From: Candidatus Limnocylindrales bacterium
GTDB taxonomy: Bacteria > Chloroflexota > Limnocylindria > Limnocylindrales > CSP1-4
Length of the DNA stretch: 59,944 nucleotides
Assembly (NCBI GenBank): GCA_038230295.1
Contig: JBBRNM010000006.1
Location: 1-59,944, forward strand
Reading direction: 5' to 3'
The notes beneath the pieces are model-generated. The model ran no database searches and was not told the origin of the DNA. It saw only the letters and a program-made list of their open reading frames with translations. This document shows positions 46,737-54,351 of the stretch, piece by piece; positions within the stretch are counted from its first letter, which is position 1, and each line of letters opens with the position of its first letter. A program made the translations under genes and the position numbers.

Positions 46737-46857
46737 GCCCGAACGATAGCGCGCGCCCGGACGATGACGCGGGACACCGCGGCCGGCCGCCATCGCCTGG
46801 GACGGGACCCGGGCCCCGAGCCGTAATAACCGGCTACATCGTGGTAGCATGTCGGAG

Positions 46858-48918
46858 ATGCAGACGCTCGCCCGACCCATCGGCCTCGGGCTCGCCGCGC
46901 GAGGCGACCCGGCGGATGCCGTGGAGTGGGCGCGCCGCGCCCGTGATGCCGGCCTCGAGTCGGTCTGGACGCACGACTCGTACTTCGAGCGCGATGCGGT
47001 CACCTTCTCGACGGTCATCGCCCAGGCCATCGCTGCCGACGGTGGTGACCCCGGATTTCGGGTGGCCCTCGGCGCCCTGAACCCGTACACCCGCCATCCC
47101 GTTGTCCTCGCGATGACCGGCGCCGCGCTCGACGAGATCCTGCCCGGCCAGATCGTCATGGGTCTCGGGACGGGCCTGCCGCTCCGGCTCAAACAGATGG
47201 GCATCCCCTACGACCCCGCCACGGCCGTGGGCCGCGTGTCTGAGGCGATCGACCAGGTCCGCGTCCTGTGGGCTGGCGAGCGCCTGCCGTCCTCGACCCC
47301 GGGCCTGCCGCCGATCCAGCCGATGTTCGCGCCGACCCACCGAATCCCGATTTCGATCGCCGCGTATCGCAAGGAGTTCGTCGCGCTGGCCGGCCAGAAG
47401 GCCGACGGCTATCTCGCCCGGCCTGCGGAGTCGATCCCATCGCTGCGCGGGATCCTCGAGCGGCTGCGGACAGCCGCGACCGAAGCGGGCCGCGACCCGG
47501 ACTCGATCGAGACGGCCGGCTACCTGCTCTCCCTGGTCGACCGAACGCGGCGCGAGGCGCTGAACCGGGCGAAGCGCGAGCCCTTCGTGATCTACATGAT
47601 GTCGGTCCTGTCGGACATCTCCCTCGGCCGAGCGGGCTTCGAGCCGGAGCTACGCGACCGGATCGCGACGGCCTGGCGGGCCGAGGACTACACGACCGCC
47701 GGCAACCTCATCCCCGACGAGCTGCTCGACGCGTTCATGCTGTGCGGGACCCGCGAAGACGTCGCCACGAAGGCGATGGCGTTCCACGTCGACGCCGGCC
47801 TTGGCCTGCCCCTCCTCCAGCCGGTCCTCCAGGAGGACGCCCAGGTCGACGCGCTGCTCGCCGCGGCGACGCTCTATGCCGAGGCTCCCGAGCCGGTGCG
47901 CGAAGGTGCCACGGACCGGCGAGCGACGACGATGGCCGAGGTGCGGGCACCGAAGGCGGGTGCGCTCGCGGGCGCCCTCGCCGACGATCGACGCCTTGGA
48001 CGGGTCGAAGCCGGGCGACGCCGGCTCGGGGCGACCTGGGAGATCTTGCGGCCCTTCGCCTACACCGCCTCGGTGATCCCGGTCCTCGCCGGCGCGGCCC
48101 TCGCCTACGTCCACGGCGGCTTCACCTTCCTGCCGTTCCTCGCTGCGCTGGCCGGCGCGATCCTGCTCCACTCCGGGACGAACATCGTCAACGAGGTCTA
48201 CGACGTCCGCCAGGGCATCGACACGATCATTTCGCCGCGGGCCAGCCACGCGATCGTCAAGGGCCGCCTGACCGAGCATGCCGCGCTCATCACCGCCGTG
48301 ATCGCGTTCTCGATCGCGGTGGCCGTCGGGGTGTACCTCGTCCTGCTTCGTGGGCCGGCGATCGTCGTCCTCGGCCTGATCGGCCTGGTTGGCGGCTGGG
48401 GCTATACGGCGCCACCGCTCCAGTACAAGTACCGCGCCCTCGGCGTGCCCCTGGTATTCCTGCTGATGGGTCCGCTGATGGTCGTCGGGACGTACTTCGC
48501 GGTGACCGGCGATTGGAGCTTCGACGCCCTCTTCCTGTCTGTGCCCGTGGGTCTCCTCGTCGCGGCGATCCTCCACGGCAACGAGTGGCGGGACATCGGT
48601 GAGGACACCCGTGCCGGGATCGTGACGCTGTCGTCGCGGCTCGGAAAGGAATGGGCTCACTACGGCTACGTCGGGCTCGTCCTGGGGGCCTACGTGACCC
48701 TCGGTCTCGCCGTCGCGTTCCGGCTCCTGCCGCCGGCGACGCTCCTCGCGATCCTGTCGCTGCCGTTCCTCGCCCAGGTGGTCCGCTCCGCCGAGCTCGG
48801 CGCCAGCGGCCAGACGCGGGCGATTGCGATGATCGACCTCCAGACGGCCCGCCTGCACCTCGCGTTCGGTGCGCTGCTCGTGCTGGGCGTCCTGCTTTCG
48901 GGCGTCCTGCGTGGCTGA
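46858..48918 (+). CDS. Fusion: LLM-class flavin/F420-dependent oxidoreductase + MenA/UbiA prenyltransferase
   Basis: N-half ESVWTHDSYFERD, NPYTRHP, GLGTG, LAGQKADG; C-half LRP..ASVIP, NIVNEVYDVRQGID, YTAPP..YKY, NEWRDIGEDTRAG..TL and multiple TM helices; one uninterrupted frame. Confidence 0.88.
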   Translation: MQTLARPIGLGLAARGDPADAVEWARRARDAGLESVWTHDSYFERDAVTFSTVIAQAIAADGGDPGFRVALGALNPYTRHPVVLAMTGAALDEILPGQIVMGLGTGLPLRLKQMGIPYDPATAVGRVSEAIDQVRVLWAGERLPSSTPGLPPIQPMFAPTHRIPISIAAYRKEFVALAGQKADGYLARPAESIPSLRGILERLRTAATEAGRDPDSIETAGYLLSLVDRTRREALNRAKREPFVIYMMSVLSDISLGRAGFEPELRDRIATAWRAEDYTTAGNLIPDELLDAFMLCGTREDVATKAMAFHVDAGLGLPLLQPVLQEDAQVDALLAAATLYAEAPEPVREGATDRRATTMAEVRAPKAGALAGALADDRRLGRVEAGRRRLGATWEILRPFAYTASVIPVLAGAALAYVHGGFTFLPFLAALAGAILLHSGTNIVNEVYDVRQGIDTIISPRASHAIVKGRLTEHAALITAVIAFSIAVAVGVYLVLLRGPAIVVLGLIGLVGGWGYTAPPLQYKYRALGVPLVFLLMGPLMVVGTYFAVTGDWSFDALFLSVPVGLLVAAILHGNEWRDIGEDTRAGIVTLSSRLGKEWAHYGYVGLVLGAYVTLGLAVAFRLLPPATLLAILSLPFLAQVVRSAELGASGQTRAIAMIDLQTARLHLAFGALLVLGVLLSGVLRG

Positions 48919-49603
48919 GGCGGCTCTGGACGCGGGGCTCGGCGCGGACGGCGCCGACGGCCCGGGCAGGATCGCCCTCGCCGTCGCCCTTGCGGCGGCC
49001 GGCGGCGCATTCGGCGCAACGTTCCGCGGTCCTCGGGAGCGGTTCTGGTCGCGGATGACCCTGACCGGGATCGGGCTCGGGAGCCTCGCAATCGCGACGT
49101 CAAGGCCGGCGCGGCGAGCGCGGCTCCGTTGGTGGCACCTGCCGATCGGACTGGCCTCCGCGGCCGTCCTGTACGTGACGTTCCAGCTCGGCGACCGCTT
49201 CGCGCGTCGGTTCGTGCCGAGCGGCGACCGCGAGATCCGCGAGATCTACGACCTGCGGACGCTCCGACCGCGGGAGGAGATCGCGACGCGCCTCGCGACG
49301 ATCATCGGGCCCGCCGAGGAGCTGTTCTGGCGCGGGCTCGTACAGTCGGCACTGATGCGCCGCTATGGCCGCTGGACGGGCGCGGCTCTCGCGGCCGCGG
49401 CATACGGCGGCGTGCACGTGGTGTCGGGCAACTTCACCTTGCTGGGCGCAGCGGGGATCGCCGGTGCCCACTGGTCGGCGCTGTATGCGGCCGGCGTGCC
49501 GCTCGGCGCCCTGATCGTGAGCCACGTCGCCTGGGACGTCTGGATCTTCCTTGTCCAGCCGACGGGCGAGATCGAGCTTGTCCCCTACGGTGCGGCCAGG
49601 TAG
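48911..49603 (+). CDS. CPBP/CAAX (Rce1-like) intramembrane glutamic endopeptidase
   Basis: GPAEELFWRG, YGGVH, IVSHVAWD; overlaps the stop of the fusion gene. Confidence 0.92.
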   Translation: MAEAALDAGLGADGADGPGRIALAVALAAAGGAFGATFRGPRERFWSRMTLTGIGLGSLAIATSRPARRARLRWWHLPIGLASAAVLYVTFQLGDRFARRFVPSGDREIREIYDLRTLRPREEIATRLATIIGPAEELFWRGLVQSALMRRYGRWTGAALAAAAYGGVHVVSGNFTLLGAAGIAGAHWSALYAAGVPLGALIVSHVAWDVWIFLVQPTGEIELVPYGAAR

Positions 49604-49686
49604 GTCCGCGTGCCGTCGGGCCACTCCTTGTACGAGCTGCCCGGCATGATGCCGTACAGCACGCCGGGGTCCTGACCTCGCTACGC

Positions 49687-49713
49687 TGCAACCCTTGGGT
49701 TGCTTACCGTGTT
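49687..49713 (+). promoter_or_regulatory. Putative ECF promoter with an embedded palindrome
   Basis: TGCAACC...CGTGTT before sigma-3; perfect inverted repeat GCAACCC-TT-GGGTTGC at 49688-49703. Confidence 0.5.
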
Positions 49714-49723
49714 GAAGGTGCTG

Positions 49724-50431
49724 ATGGACACCGACGCCACGCTTACCGCCCGACTCGCCCACGACCTTGACGCCGCGTTCCCGACGCTCGTCGAAACCCA
49801 CCAGGACCGGCTCTACACGATCGCGCTCCGACTGCTCGGGGATCCGCGCGACGCGGAGGAGGTCGCCCAGGACGCGCTCGTGCGCGCCTACCGCGCGATG
49901 TCGGCGTACCCGGCACGACGGATCGCCGAGCTCCGGCTTCGACCGTGGCTCGCCGCCATCACGGTCAACCTGGCCCGGAACCGGCGGCGGCGCCTCGCCG
50001 AGCGACATCCGCCGGTCCAGCTCGATCCGCTTCTTGGCGCCGGCTTCGAGCCGGTGGAGGAGCAACCGGGCCCGGCCTCGCTCGCGACACGCCGCGAACG
50101 CATCGAGGAGCTCGCCGAAACCATGCTTCGGCTCCCGCCGGCCATTCGCATCGCCGTCGTCCTCCGCCACGTCGACGGGCTCTCCGTCGCCGAGACCTCG
50201 GAAGCGCTCGGGCGGCCGGAAGGCACCGTGAAGGCCCAGGTCTCCCGCGGGCTCGATCGGCTGCGCCAGCTGCTCGACGACTCGGAAGCTCAGGCCTCGG
50301 TCACGGCGCACGACACCGAGCTGTCAGGCTCGCCGCCGCGACCGCGCACGGCCGCTGTCGATCCCGCCCACACCGCAGCTCCCCCTTCGACCGAGGGCCG
50401 CGCGTTCGCGGCCGCCGAGGTGCTCCGATGA
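49724..50431 (+). CDS. ECF RNA polymerase sigma factor (sigma-3) with a C-terminal extension
   Basis: DAEEVAQDALVRAY, RPWLAAITVNLARN, GLSVAETSEALGRPEGTVKAQVSRG. Confidence 0.95.
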   Translation: MDTDATLTARLAHDLDAAFPTLVETHQDRLYTIALRLLGDPRDAEEVAQDALVRAYRAMSAYPARRIAELRLRPWLAAITVNLARNRRRRLAERHPPVQLDPLLGAGFEPVEEQPGPASLATRRERIEELAETMLRLPPAIRIAVVLRHVDGLSVAETSEALGRPEGTVKAQVSRGLDRLRQLLDDSEAQASVTAHDTELSGSPPRPRTAAVDPAHTAAPPSTEGRAFAAAEVLR

Positions 50432-51210
50432 CCACGACGATCCTGACCTCCCTTGCCGACCTTCGGGTCAGCGCCCCAGACTCCGTCGGGTTCGGCGCCC
50501 TCGTCGCGACGGGTCTCGCCGACCGCTACGCCACGAGCAACTCGCCGCTGGGCCTGACCTTCGTCGCCTGGAACGGGCGCGGCGTGTCGTGGGTCGGATC
50601 TGCCGGCAATCCCGCCGACTTCGAGGCCCAGGTCCAGGCGCACACGGGCCGGCCCATCCGGCGTGCCGTGGCGCTGCCGCCGAAGCTCTCGCGGGCCATC
50701 GAGCGGCGCCTGGCGGGCGACCGGCGGGTCCGGATCGACTTGGACCTCCGCGGTGCGACACCGTTCGAGGTCGCGGTCTGGCGCAAGGCGCTCGAGATCC
50801 CGCGCGGCGAGGTCCGGCCATACGGCTGGATCGCCGCCGAGATTGGGCGGCCGAAGGCCGTCCGGGCCGTCGGTACGGCACTCGCCCACAACCCGATCCC
50901 GCTCGTGGTGCCGTGCCATCGCGTCGTTCGAAGCGACGGCACGATCGGGATGTACTCGCTCGGCGGGCCGGAGAACAAGCGTCGAATTCTCTTCGCCGAG
51001 GGCCTCGATCCCGATGCCATGGAAGCGGCGGCGAGCGCAGGCGAGCGCTACCTCGGCTCAGACACCACCCATATCGTCTGCCTGCCTTCGTGCCAGCACG
51101 CTCGCCGGATCACGGAGCGGCACCGCGTGCCCTTCGCCTCGCTGAACCAGGCGCGTGCCGCCGGCTATCGGCTCTGCCGTCGCTGCCGACCGGTGTCGCT
51201 CGCGGCCTGA
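50428..51210 (+). CDS. Methylated-DNA-protein-cysteine methyltransferase with a C-terminal Ada Zn-binding domain
   Basis: TPFEVAVW, IPRGEVRPYG, RAVGTA, VPCHRV; C-terminal TTHIVCLPSC...AGYRLCRRC; ATGA overlap with sigma-3. Confidence 0.92.
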   Translation: MTTTILTSLADLRVSAPDSVGFGALVATGLADRYATSNSPLGLTFVAWNGRGVSWVGSAGNPADFEAQVQAHTGRPIRRAVALPPKLSRAIERRLAGDRRVRIDLDLRGATPFEVAVWRKALEIPRGEVRPYGWIAAEIGRPKAVRAVGTALAHNPIPLVVPCHRVVRSDGTIGMYSLGGPENKRRILFAEGLDPDAMEAAASAGERYLGSDTTHIVCLPSCQHARRITERHRVPFASLNQARAAGYRLCRRCRPVSLAA

Positions 51211-51290
51211 CGTTTCGAATCGCAACCGAATCGCACATGGCGTCGCCCTGCGCGAGGCGCTAGACTCGGCCAATCTTGGACCACCAGGCT

Positions 51291-52355
51291 ATGCCAAGAA
51301 GGCACTACGTTACGGGCCCGCGGCTGTGGCTCGCGCTGGCGACCGTCTATGTGGTCTGGGGCTCGACGTATCTCGGAATCGCGGTCGCGATCGAGTCGAT
51401 CCCGCCGTTCCTCATGCTGGCAGTGCGTTTCGCCGTCGCCGGCACCCTGCTCCTCGGATGGGAGATCGTCCGGAACGGGCGCATGATCGTCTGGCCGACG
51501 CGGCGCGAGGTTCGCGATTCGGCCATCGTCGGCGGGCTGCTGCTTGGGATCGGCAACGGGTTCGTTGCCTATGGCGAGCAGACCCTCCCGTCCGGGATCG
51601 CCGCGATCCTCATCGCCCTTATGCCGGTCTGGCTCGCGATCCTCGGCTGGATCTACTTCCGCGATCGCCTCCCCCGAATCGTCCTCGCTGGCGTCGTCGT
51701 GGGGCTCCTCGGTGTTGTCCTGCTCGTCTGGCCGGCCGGCGGCGGCGCGAACCACTTCGCCCCGGCCGGGATCGTCGCCCTCATCCTGTCGCCGCTCGGT
51801 TGGGCGCATGGGTCGCTCTTCTCGGCGCGGGCGGCTCGACTGCCGAAGCGTCCGCTCATGGCCACCGCGCTCCAGATGCTCGCCGGGGCGGTGTTCCTGG
51901 CGCTCGAGGGCGTCGTCACCGGCGAGCTCGGCCGGTTCCAGCCCGACGCGGTCACGTTCCGATCCCTCGCCGCGCTCGCCTACCTGACCGTCGTCGGCAG
52001 CATGCTGGCGTTCAACGCGTACGCCTGGCTGCTCCGGCACGCGCCGCTCTCGATCGTCGGCACGTATGCGTACGTGAACCCGATCGTCGCGGTCGGCCTC
52101 GGCACGCTCCTCCTCAACGAGCCGGTGAGCCCCAGGACGCTCCTCGCCTCGGGCGTGATCGTCGCCGCCGTCGCGATGATCGTCACGGCGCGCGGTCGCC
52201 TGAGCCGGATGTCGGCAGCCACGACGCAGTCGGGCGAGTTCTCGGGCGCGATGATCGACGACCCCCCGGCGGGCGATCCCGAGGACGGGATTGTGGCCGC
52301 GGCGCCGCCCCGGGTCAGACCGGCGGTGAGCTCTCCGCAAGCACGGTCCGACTGA
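51291..52355 (+). CDS. EamA/DMT family transporter
   Basis: VYVVWGSTYL, PPFLM..VRF, TYAYVNPIVA; about 10 TM helices. Confidence 0.92.
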   Translation: MPRRHYVTGPRLWLALATVYVVWGSTYLGIAVAIESIPPFLMLAVRFAVAGTLLLGWEIVRNGRMIVWPTRREVRDSAIVGGLLLGIGNGFVAYGEQTLPSGIAAILIALMPVWLAILGWIYFRDRLPRIVLAGVVVGLLGVVLLVWPAGGGANHFAPAGIVALILSPLGWAHGSLFSARAARLPKRPLMATALQMLAGAVFLALEGVVTGELGRFQPDAVTFRSLAALAYLTVVGSMLAFNAYAWLLRHAPLSIVGTYAYVNPIVAVGLGTLLLNEPVSPRTLLASGVIVAAVAMIVTARGRLSRMSAATTQSGEFSGAMIDDPPAGDPEDGIVAAAPPRVRPAVSSPQARSD

Positions 52356-54351
52356 TCCGGCGAGCCATCGCCATGATCCCGAGCATCGGGTTGACCCCGA
52401 TGCCGGTCGGGAACGTGGACCCGTCGGCGACGTATAGCCCGCGGATCAGCCTCCCGTCGGCGTTCGAGCGGATCCGTCCCTGCGGGTCAGCCGGGTGGTC
52501 GCGAGCATCCGCGCCCAGGCGGACCGTCCCCATCTGGTGGGCCGAGAACACCGATCCGCGGTTCGAGGCGAAGTCCATCGCCGCGAGCTCGGCCTCGAAG
52601 GCACCGAATCGGGCGACCGCTCCCCGCGTGGTCTCGGGTCGGTGGCGGATCATCGGCGTCCCGACGCCGATAATCTCTGCGGCCCCGCCTGCCCGAGCGA
52701 TGTTCGCCATCGCGACGAGCGCGTGTCGGAGCGTCGCGACGCCAAGGCGATCGAGCCGGTAGTCGATTCGAACGCGGCGGGCGCGGGTCACGCTCGTGCG
52801 CCCTTCGCCGCCGTCACGGGTGATCGCGATCAGGGGGGCGATGTATCGGACCGCGCCGGCGAGCTCGGCGTGGTCGGCCGCGCCGGCCCAGGGCAACGCG
52901 AGCGCGAGCAACCCGGGATGGCCTGGCGCCGATTCGATGACGTATCCGCGCCGCGTCGCATCGCCGGACCCGAACTGCAGCGATCGCGCCGCCTGCATCG
53001 TGCCCTGCCACATGTCGACCGGATCGGCCATCCTGGCCGCGACGAGCGCCACGGGATGGATCCGGAGATACCGCCCGATCGACGGGTGATGCACGCCGGA
53101 AGCTTGGAGGACCGCGGGAGATCGCAGCGCACCCGCGGCGAGGGCGACCTGCGGCGCACGAACGACGAGTCGGCGCACGGCGGCCGCGGTCGAGTCACCC
53201 TCCCGAGTGACCGGCATGCCGGTGACCGGGTCGGTGACGAGCAGGTTCGCCTCGACGCCTGTGACCCGGTCTCCCTCGAGGAGCAGGCGGGTGACCCTGG
53301 CGCGGTCGACGATCCGGGCGCCGTGCTCGAACGCCGATCGGAGGTGGACCCGGATCCCGGACTGCTTGGCGCCCGCGACGCAGCCGAACGGGCAGGAGCC
53401 ACACGCGCCGCAGTCCGTCGCGTTGCGCCGGATCCGGTCCGCCTCCCAGCCGAGCGCTGCCGTCCCACGGAGGATCAGCTCGTCCTTCGAGGGAATCACG
53501 CTCGCCGGGGCGACGCCGAGCTCTTCCTCGATGACTGCGCGATCTTTCGCCCACTCGGGGCCGTCGAGCCCTTCGAGGCCGTGCTCGGTCCCCCATTCGG
53601 CACGGATCGAGTCGGGGATGTCGATGCAGGTCATCCAGTTCACGAGCGTGCCGCCGCCGACGCCCGAGCCGGCGAGGATCGTCACGCTGCCGTCCCACGT
53701 CGAGAGGAGCCCGTGATTCAGGTAGAGGCGGCTGAAGGCATCCATCTCGCCGCGGGGCATCGCGCCTTCGTCCACGAATGGCCCCGCCTCGAGCACGACG
53801 ACCGATCGGCCGGCACGCGCGAGCTCGGCGGCCATGACCCCACCGCCTGCGCCGGAGCCCACGATCACGACGTCGGCGGTCAGCTCGATCGGGCTCTCGC
53901 CGGCGGACGGTGCACGAGGGAGGTCGAGCGGCCGGATCGGCGTTGGATCCACGGTGACGGCGGGCCGATCCGGCGCGTACCCGATCCGTGCCGGCAGGAG
54001 GTTCGGCGCGTCCGGCGTGCCCGAGTCGGCATAGGCCAGGAACGACAGAAGCCCCCGAAACGCCTGGAACGCCGCGCGCTTCTGCGGCACGGACGAGCCG
54101 GCCCATCGGAGCAGGAGCCGCTCGCGGTCGGCAGGAGCCAGGTTACGGAACGCGCGCCCTCGACCGGCGGAAAGGCGGTTCACGAGCGGTTGCTCGAGCA
54201 GGCGGAGGACGAGCCGAAGCTGGAGGACCTGGGCCGGGTCGGCGGCGCGGATCAGGGCGTCGCCGGCCAATCCGGCGATCCGTTCAGGGTCCGCGGCCGG
54301 GACGAACGTCTCGACGAGAGCCGCGAGCGTCCGGAGCTCGCCGGCGTTCAC
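52315..54351 (-). CDS. GMC oxidoreductase (long-chain alcohol oxidase-like)
   Basis: VGSGAGG, GVGGGTLVN, CGACGSCPFGC, SAHQMGT, DGSTFPTGIGVNP. Confidence 0.92.
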   Translation of the reverse strand: MNAGELRTLAALVETFVPAADPERIAGLAGDALIRAADPAQVLQLRLVLRLLEQPLVNRLSAGRGRAFRNLAPADRERLLLRWAGSSVPQKRAAFQAFRGLLSFLAYADSGTPDAPNLLPARIGYAPDRPAVTVDPTPIRPLDLPRAPSAGESPIELTADVVIVGSGAGGGVMAAELARAGRSVVVLEAGPFVDEGAMPRGEMDAFSRLYLNHGLLSTWDGSVTILAGSGVGGGTLVNWMTCIDIPDSIRAEWGTEHGLEGLDGPEWAKDRAVIEEELGVAPASVIPSKDELILRGTAALGWEADRIRRNATDCGACGSCPFGCVAGAKQSGIRVHLRSAFEHGARIVDRARVTRLLLEGDRVTGVEANLLVTDPVTGMPVTREGDSTAAAVRRLVVRAPQVALAAGALRSPAVLQASGVHHPSIGRYLRIHPVALVAARMADPVDMWQGTMQAARSLQFGSGDATRRGYVIESAPGHPGLLALALPWAGAADHAELAGAVRYIAPLIAITRDGGEGRTSVTRARRVRIDYRLDRLGVATLRHALVAMANIARAGGAAEIIGVGTPMIRHRPETTRGAVARFGAFEAELAAMDFASNRGSVFSAHQMGTVRLGADARDHPADPQGRIRSNADGRLIRGLYVADGSTFPTGIGVNPMLGIMAMARRISRTVLAESSPPV

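Follow-up and report, generated by a model that had tools for sequence, protein, structure and literature searches.

An anti-sigma-like extension on an O6-alkylguanine transferase encoded with an ECF sigma factor in a Limnocylindrales bacterium: a candidate circuit for sensing DNA alkylation

Each lesion repaired costs the cell one molecule of O6-alkylguanine transferase, so that the consumption of these enzymes has to be sensed; to our knowledge Ada, a DNA-binding activator, is the one bacterial answer that is well understood. In Escherichia coli Ada an N-terminal Zn domain is methylated by methylphosphotriesters and activates transcription through an AraC-type helix-turn-helix (HTH). Transferases of this kind are also encoded beside extracytoplasmic function (ECF) sigma factors: group ECF122, from Actinobacteria, is described as having no anti-sigma factor, a 6-O-methylguanine methyltransferase (MGMT) at position +1 and the promoter motif CTCAC/CGTCTAC, and group ECF203, also from Actinobacteria, as having a methyltransferase at +1 with Ada_Zn_binding, TetR and major facilitator superfamily (MFS) proteins in its context; a role in DNA damage repair is proposed for both, with the mechanism given as unknown (Casas-Pastor et al. 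2021, NAR, PMC7826278). A 2022 review lists the ECF122-MGMT system among non-canonical ones with uncharacterised regulation (PMC8999054), and no experimental study of an ECF sigma and MGMT pair was found in the literature searched, in which subscription journals are thinly covered. The locus considered here lies at 49724-51210 of a 59,944-nucleotide stretch of a Candidatus Limnocylindrales bacterium (Chloroflexota; assembly GCA_038230295.1, contig JBBRNM010000006.1, positions 1 to 59,944), hereafter the window; it joins an ECF sigma gene to a gene for a transferase with a C-terminal Ada Zn domain (MGMT-AdaZn). The odds seem evenly balanced that this repair protein is a cytoplasmic anti-sigma factor, consumed by self-alkylation and thereby releasing its cognate ECF sigma.

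As far as the published group descriptions go, ECF122 and ECF203 resemble the window locus in that an MGMT gene occupies +1 and an anti-sigma gene is not recognisable, and ECF203 also in the presence of an Ada Zn domain. They are described from Actinobacteria only, whereas the clade of the window spans Chloroflexota, Actinomycetota, Acidobacteriota and Dormibacterota; the motif given for ECF122, CTCAC at -35 and CGTCTAC at -10, differs from the TGCAACC/CGTGTT conserved at the window, and the TetR and MFS genes noted for ECF203 are not among the two window neighbours, nor within 3 kb in three Nonomuraea/Streptosporangium loci. The novelty of the pairing was overstated in an earlier note on this DNA; the pairing is already present in ECF122 and ECF203 (PMC7826278), and ECF122-MGMT in the review (PMC8999054). 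The pairing is a real conserved module, already catalogued, whose mechanism is unexplored; what is new here is the extension as an anti-sigma remnant that is absent from sigma-less copies, a predicted clamp on the sigma factor and a conserved operon promoter.

The ECF sigma factor gene (49724-50431, + strand) encodes a 235 aa protein in which residues 22-92 match Pfam Sigma70_r2 (PF04542, E 3.9e-13) and residues 128-180 match Sigma70_r4_2 (PF08281, E 2.9e-13); with regions 2 and 4 only, and with the family model TIGR02937 (sigma70-ECF) at 70.1 bits against a cut-off of 42.9, it is an ECF (group 4) sigma-70 factor. Its TGA stop overlaps the ATG of the repair gene in an ATGA at 50428-50431 (+ strand), an arrangement indicative of translational coupling that the earlier note had described and that is read directly from the DNA; a start codon at the four-nucleotide overlap is present in 63 of 91 sigma/MGMT pairs, a count in which the choice of start favoured that position. 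The MGMT-AdaZn repair gene (50428-51210, + strand) encodes 260 aa, comprising a 33 aa N-terminal extension, an O6-alkylguanine-DNA alkyltransferase core (N-domain and DNA-binding/catalytic domain; 50527-51018, + strand) and an Ada-type Zn(Cys)4 domain (51034-51192, + strand). The core matches Pfam DNA_binding_1 (PF01035) over residues 112-192 (E 6.1e-30), TIGR00589 at 93.8 bits against a cut-off of 46.4, and the structure 1sfe both by profile search of the Protein Data Bank (PDB; E 6.5e-35) and by Foldseek comparison of the model (template modelling score normalised to the target, 0.80); with its PCHR active site (P162-C163-H164-R165, acceptor Cys163; 50911-50922, + strand), read directly and invariant in 101 sequences, and its N-terminal domain fold, the protein is an O6-alkylguanine-DNA alkyltransferase of the Ogt/MGMT type. 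Residues 203-255 match Ada_Zn_binding (PF02805; E 4.1e-10, 40 bits against 23), and C218, C222, C250 and C253 fall in alignment on the four Zn cysteines of E. coli N-Ada (1adn), C218 opposite the first, Cys38, the methyl acceptor of Ada; by its four cysteine ligands, the Cys38 equivalent included, the region is an Ada Zn(Cys)4 domain of the methylphosphotriester type. These cysteines are also invariant across the 101 sequences, and because the catalytic and Zn cysteines are all invariant, both the transferase and the Ada-Zn domain are likely active. These gene features are domain matches far beyond chance.

The AlphaFold2 (AF2) monomer of the repair protein, built from 101 sequences, has a predicted local distance difference test (pLDDT) of 95.6 and a predicted template modelling score (pTM) of 0.89, and its fold resembles that of Ada-C (1sfe), M. 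tuberculosis OGT and N-Ada. E. coli Ada likewise combines a Zn(Cys)4 domain with an O6-alkylguanine transferase, its acceptor and ligand cysteines aligning with those of the window protein, and irreversible self-alkylation is a plausible signal in both; however, the domain order is reversed in the window protein, the AraC-type HTH is lacking (no Pfam match to AraC/HTH_18), and the output would be sequestration of a dedicated sigma factor rather than DNA binding. The NCBIfam Ada equivalog NF011964 scores 114.3 on the protein against a cut-off of 345, which sets it apart from E. coli-type Ada, and all NCBIfam equivalogs fall under their cut-offs. The domain content given in the earlier note (an extension of about 30 aa, a PCHR transferase, a C-terminal Ada domain, no AraC HTH) thus stands; in place of its term "rearranged Ada", the protein is better called a widespread MGMT + Ada-Zn architecture, found in 228 representative clusters at E ≤ 1e-30, with a remnant of an anti-sigma domain. 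All of the best 120 near matches of the repair protein carry PF01035 and PF02805.

The extension (residues 1-33; 50428-50526, + strand) is predicted to be the sigma-binding part of the protein, a likely role that the earlier note, which listed the extension, had not recognised. Its length of about 33 aa follows from the start of the MGMT N-domain near residue 34, since the MGMT matches in the PDB profile search begin at profile positions 34-39. The AF2 model contains two helices here, residues 2-10 and 18-27, around a conserved Ala-Pro. Among 101 sigma-linked proteins P17 is kept in 99, L12 in 86, L9 in 82 and D32 in 77, and constraint on the extension equals that on the catalytic core. Its likely origin is visible in relatives of about 300 aa, many representatives of which have an N-terminus of 60-100 aa; Pfam zf-HC2 is matched at its cut-off in 7 of the 21 long forms scanned. 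One such relative (P0206, folded with 42 sequences, pLDDT 94.2) has four N-terminal helices that superpose on the anti-sigma domain of MucA (Z 7.4, rmsd 1.5, 52 aa), RsiW (Z 7.1), RslA (Z 6.5), RskA and RseA (Z 5.2); these structural Z values are moderate, and their weight comes from agreement with Pfam and with one another. Residues 1-33 of the window protein align past the HxxxCxxC of relatives that bear a zinc anti-sigma (ZAS) domain, where they correspond to the last part of helix 3, the Ala-Pro turn and helix 4, and the extension is best explained as a two-helix remnant of a class I (zinc) anti-sigma domain.

A tree of the enzyme columns divides at one branch (SH-aLRT 95) into 32 and 89 rows; all 19 ZAS forms fall within the group of 32, and the group of 89, which includes the window, consists only of short or non-zinc forms. 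The short form makes up one large clade across Chloroflexota, Actinomycetota, Acidobacteriota and Dormibacterota; the tree is read without a root, and change between ZAS and short forms may have run either way. The extension tracks the sigma gene and not the enzyme: the two MGMT-AdaZn genes with upstream room and no sigma gene (L032, L107) have no extension, and in L033 and L109 the second of the tandem copies begins straight at the MGMT N-domain. Two tandem MGMT-AdaZn genes stand behind the sigma gene in L029, L031/L092, L033 and L109, with the anti-sigma part in the first; the second has no anti-sigma part or an unrelated N-terminus, and in such pairs one copy may act as the sensor and the other as the repair enzyme.

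The prediction of a complex between sigma residues 1-190 (alignment A2) and the whole repair protein (alignment A3) scored 0.85, 0.84 and 0.84 over three runs, and all three controls scored 0.00; 116 of 157 solved complexes and 2 of 215 mismatched pairs come up to the mark applied, counts that are a rough guide since custom alignments were used. At least 98% of contacts are common to the runs, with partner pLDDT of at least 89, and the confident interface joins repair protein residues 5-30 to sigma residues 16-57 (region 2) and 123-184 (region 4). An extension wedged between regions 2 and 4 is the geometry of an anti-sigma clamp, and the model thus supports, in silico, binding of the sigma factor through the extension. 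The suggestion of the earlier note that the repair protein may itself be the anti-sigma factor gains from this controlled prediction (0.84 against a best control of 0.00, with the interface in the extension only), as well as from the translationally coupled +1 position and the lack of a classical anti-sigma gene; the binding remains a prediction of the model.

The class I anti-sigma factors (RslA-SigL, RsiW-SigW, MucA-AlgU and RseA-SigE) are likewise encoded at +1 and translationally coupled, and their place between sigma regions 2 and 4 matches that predicted for the window protein, relatives of which carry the class I domain itself (zf-HC2; structural Z 5.2-7.4). The window protein differs from them in that it retains, apart from helix 4, just the last part of helix 3, has neither Zn ligands nor a membrane span, and is fused to two enzymatic alkyl-acceptor domains. 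In CnrY and NepR, two-helix anti-sigma factors of small size, a very short helical segment is enough to hold an ECF sigma between regions 2 and 4, with no enzyme fusion.

The pairing is conserved well beyond the window. When 201 genomes of its phylum were searched with the repair protein and the 30 best loci taken, an ECF sigma open reading frame (ORF) stood directly upstream on the same strand in 29 (28 of 29 without L018, from genome G038, which is flagged as unpublished). A wider survey of one genome per species gave 80 loci, of which five have no upstream DNA; the sigma gene is directly upstream in 74 of the 75 assessable, from several phyla, and L107 has the room and no sigma gene. The two surveys, which bear out the neighbourhood conservation that the earlier note had made a test of its idea, share genomes and are not independent, and L031 and L092 are identical tree rows. 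In the reverse direction, 34 of the 201 genomes hold a sigma match at E ≤ 1e-25, with an adjoining MGMT-AdaZn gene in 30. Five sigma homologues without MGMT have at +1 a zf-HC2 anti-sigma factor (three) or a HEAT-repeat protein (two).

The loci come from Limnocylindrales/Chloroflexota, the names borne by the nearest relatives of the window, and from Acidimicrobiia, other Actinomycetota (the cultured Nonomuraea and Streptosporangium included), Acidobacteriota, Dormibacterota and Eremiobacterota. L062 and L090, on contigs of metagenome-assembled genomes labelled Gammaproteobacteria and Verrucomicrobiia, are nested in the Acidimicrobiia and Dormibacterota clades; the labels are probably binning errors, or the genes were recently transferred. 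The HEAT-repeat proteins follow close sigma homologues in L114 and L115; the short N-terminus of the one in L115 is similar to the Ala-Pro helix motif seen in the MGMT extension (...SAP..L...VL...), L114 has Ser-Pro, and these partners may be another unrecognised type of anti-sigma factor. Fusions of sigma and MGMT, considered as Rosetta-stone evidence, were rejected: of 27 long matches, including entries with both domains, 10 were inspected, and those 10 proved to be frameshifted gene calls in which good segments are separated by stretches out of frame. The "sigma-MGMT" and "EamA-MGMT" fusions P0122-P0133 are such calls from high-GC metagenome contigs, and entries of this kind in public protein collections could mislead surveys of domain architecture.

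A predicted ECF-type promoter precedes the operon, with a -35 element TGCAACC at 49687-49693 and a -10 element CGTGTT at 49708-49713 (both + strand), identified through an anchored alignment of 64 sigma-upstream regions; the motif before the sigma genes reads TGCAACC, 14-15 nt, (C/G)G(T/G)GTT(C), and information content in the alignment is confined to TGCAACC and GGTGTTC. GCAAC occurs within the final 80 nt in 68 of 94 sigma-upstream regions and the spaced pattern fits 62-64, with 18 nt from GCAAC to GTT in 59 of 62 instances and at the window. GTT and the start codon lie 10 nt apart in the window, as they do in 17 of the 64 promoters; CGTGTT lies 10 nt before the ATG, and the transcript would therefore have almost no leader. 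We infer that this sigma factor uses the TGCAACC/CGTGTT promoter. A perfect 7-2-7 inverted repeat, GCAACCC-TT-GGGTTGC, covers the -35 element at 49688-49703; a comparable palindrome is found in only 3 of the 64 related promoters, and it is probably incidental, an operator role being possible. Upstream of TGCAAC in nine loci of close relatives (L036, L037, L041, L043, L044, L045, L048, L050 and L052) stand two more conserved blocks, GATTGTCGCA(T/C) and GTACCGTA, which have the appearance of a promoter or gene start facing the other way. The window has neither, since there the gene upstream runs in the same direction as the operon.

Scanned with a position weight matrix (PWM) of the 62 instances, the 2.44-Mb genome, which is 92% complete, gives the window site as its best at 24.3 bits. 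The runner-up, at 18.6 bits, is a promoter-like sequence much like it, GTGTAAC...GGTGTTCTGG, ahead of a further ECF sigma gene on contig C39 (G000, about 7176-6560, - strand); this could reflect cross-recognition or a related autoregulated paralogue. The PWM scan revealed nothing else convincing as a wider regulon in this genome: a site of 15.8 bits about 500 nt ahead of a MutY-like frame was judged noise. A pattern scan of the genomes of five relatives stayed near the control level except at their own sigma promoters, and three matches in G111 lie in apparent 16S rRNA. The response, if any, seems to be the operon itself.

These observations can be joined in a mechanism in which the repair enzyme would double as the cytoplasmic anti-sigma factor of the ECF sigma encoded just before it. 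The two-helix extension, as the complex model suggests, would wedge between sigma regions 2 and 4 and keep the sigma off RNA polymerase; irreversible self-alkylation, with O6-alkylguanine as the donor to Cys163 and perhaps methylphosphotriesters as donors to Cys218, would leave the protein inactivated, unfolded or degraded and so free the sigma, which would transcribe its own operon from the TGCAACC-N-CGTGTT promoter. New synthesis would replace the spent suicide enzyme and restore inhibition, making a self-contained circuit that holds the pool of unalkylated repair protein constant without a DNA-binding activator such as Ada. That a two-helix remnant suffices to hold an ECF sigma, with the suicide chemistry of MGMT and/or Ada-Zn as the input, is offered tentatively, at somewhat below even chances.

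Several observations weigh against this mechanism, and the link from alkylation to release, which we infer, is its weak point. The MGMT and Ada-Zn domains lie outside the predicted sigma interface, and because of this the alkylation signal is assumed to pass through unfolding or proteolysis. Compared with a complete anti-sigma domain, the extension lacks helices 1-3 as well as the Zn ligands, and it has no zf-HC2 match, so that a class I anti-sigma domain (ASD/ZAS) is recognisable in relatives and not in the window protein; the extension is modelled at pLDDT 88-89 within a compact AF2 monomer (pTM 0.89) and may also pack on its own protein. The complex prediction may have passed on its likeness to the many solved sigma/anti-sigma complexes and not on binding by this particular copy. 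Covariation between the two proteins (mutual information with average product correction, 92 pairs, effective number of sequences 76) is uninformative, with 15 of the 100 top pairs in the extension, which holds 12.5% of the usable columns. Further promoter sites could be missing from the 92% complete genome.

The same binding evidence would serve equally if the extension holds the sigma and the cue for release is something other than alkylation, candidates being oxidation of or electrophile attack on Zn(Cys)4 as in ZAS proteins, engagement of DNA by the repair domains, or titration by the rate of synthesis. The position of both repair domains outside the predicted interface fits such a cue, as does the ZAS-type HxxxCxxC site carried by relatives, a site that in other anti-sigma factors is a thiol-reactive sensor; nevertheless the short form at the window has lost the ZAS cysteines, and across phyla the sigma-binding part is fused to precisely these two alkyl-acceptor domains with invariant acceptor cysteines, which is not easily accounted for if alkyl transfer plays no part, so this explanation is considered unlikely, though worth keeping in view. 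A more distant departure would deny the extension any regulatory part: the repair gene would be merely a co-transcribed target, the sigma being controlled transcriptionally or by an unlinked regulator, and the extension would have a structural or DNA-related role within the enzyme. The 2022 review does describe ECF groups that have no anti-sigma factor (PMC8999054), and the confident placement of the extension in the compact monomer (pLDDT 88-89) suits a structural part. Against it, enzyme copies without a sigma gene are also without the extension, and the extension shares homology with a segment that in relatives belongs to a true anti-sigma domain. The complex model also clears its mark while the controls stay at 0.00, and sigma homologues that lack MGMT are followed there by anti-sigma factors; the co-transcription account is accordingly judged quite improbable.

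The methylated protein could instead act as Ada does, as a co-activator touching sigma region 4 at the promoter, so that methylation activates the sigma rather than releasing it. E. coli methyl-Ada contacts sigma-70, and the Ada Zn domain of the window protein is intact with C218 as its Cys38 equivalent. Positive control of this kind has very little probability in our estimate: no Ada-box-like element is conserved upstream of -35 in the 64 anchored promoters, where nothing conserved is seen at all, the protein has no HTH output domain, and the predicted interface uses the extension to clamp regions 2 and 4, which is the geometry of inhibition. The preferred reading remains the release of the sigma factor by self-alkylation of its bound repair protein.

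The surroundings of the locus agree with the earlier note that no membrane anti-sigma gene is present: none is recognisable among the neighbouring genes, which were checked by domain, and the four zf-HC2 matches of the genome are all on other contigs, each directly after a sigma gene. An EamA-family transporter gene (51276-52355, + strand; Pfam EamA) follows the repair gene and is possibly co-transcribed; EamA is downstream also in eight close relatives (L036, L040, L041, L044, L047, L049, L050 and L052), the position being kept only in close relatives with other genes downstream elsewhere, and it may belong to the operon response. The upstream gene (48869-49603), co-directional with the operon, encodes an Rce1-like CPBP protease, and a scan of 49400-52500 for sigma-70 promoters and intrinsic terminators found none. 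Further upstream, a 689-aa ORF (46849-48918, + strand) joins a luciferase-like monooxygenase (residues 17-313) to a UbiA prenyltransferase (residues 409-642) and could be either a fusion or the read-through of two genes. At the end of the sigma protein, a tail of about 50 aa rich in proline, alanine and threonine (50281-50428) is unconserved in most of 93 relatives; the consensus of alignment A2 (94 sequences) stops near residue 190, and a few close relatives match P0001 as far as about residue 210-219. By profile searches the genome holds two MGMT genes and one AAG-type glycosylase, with no match to AlkB or AlkA_N; its only Ada_Zn_binding match is in the window repair protein.

At this locus the two alkyl-acceptor domains of Ada are joined to a sigma/anti-sigma switch instead of an Ada-type activator. 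If alkylation does free the sigma, the system would be a second and mechanistically different adaptive response, and a rare case in which irreversible enzyme turnover serves directly as a transcriptional signal; the cell would gauge its unspent repair protein and replace it one for one, with no DNA-binding regulator and a regulon that is essentially its own operon. The finding would supply a mechanism for ECF122 and ECF203, which were left without a regulator in the classification, and would define a minimal sigma-binding motif, L..L...AP..L...V, to aid in finding other hidden anti-sigma factors. If the proposal is true, the circuit would represent a widespread but unstudied mode of signalling.

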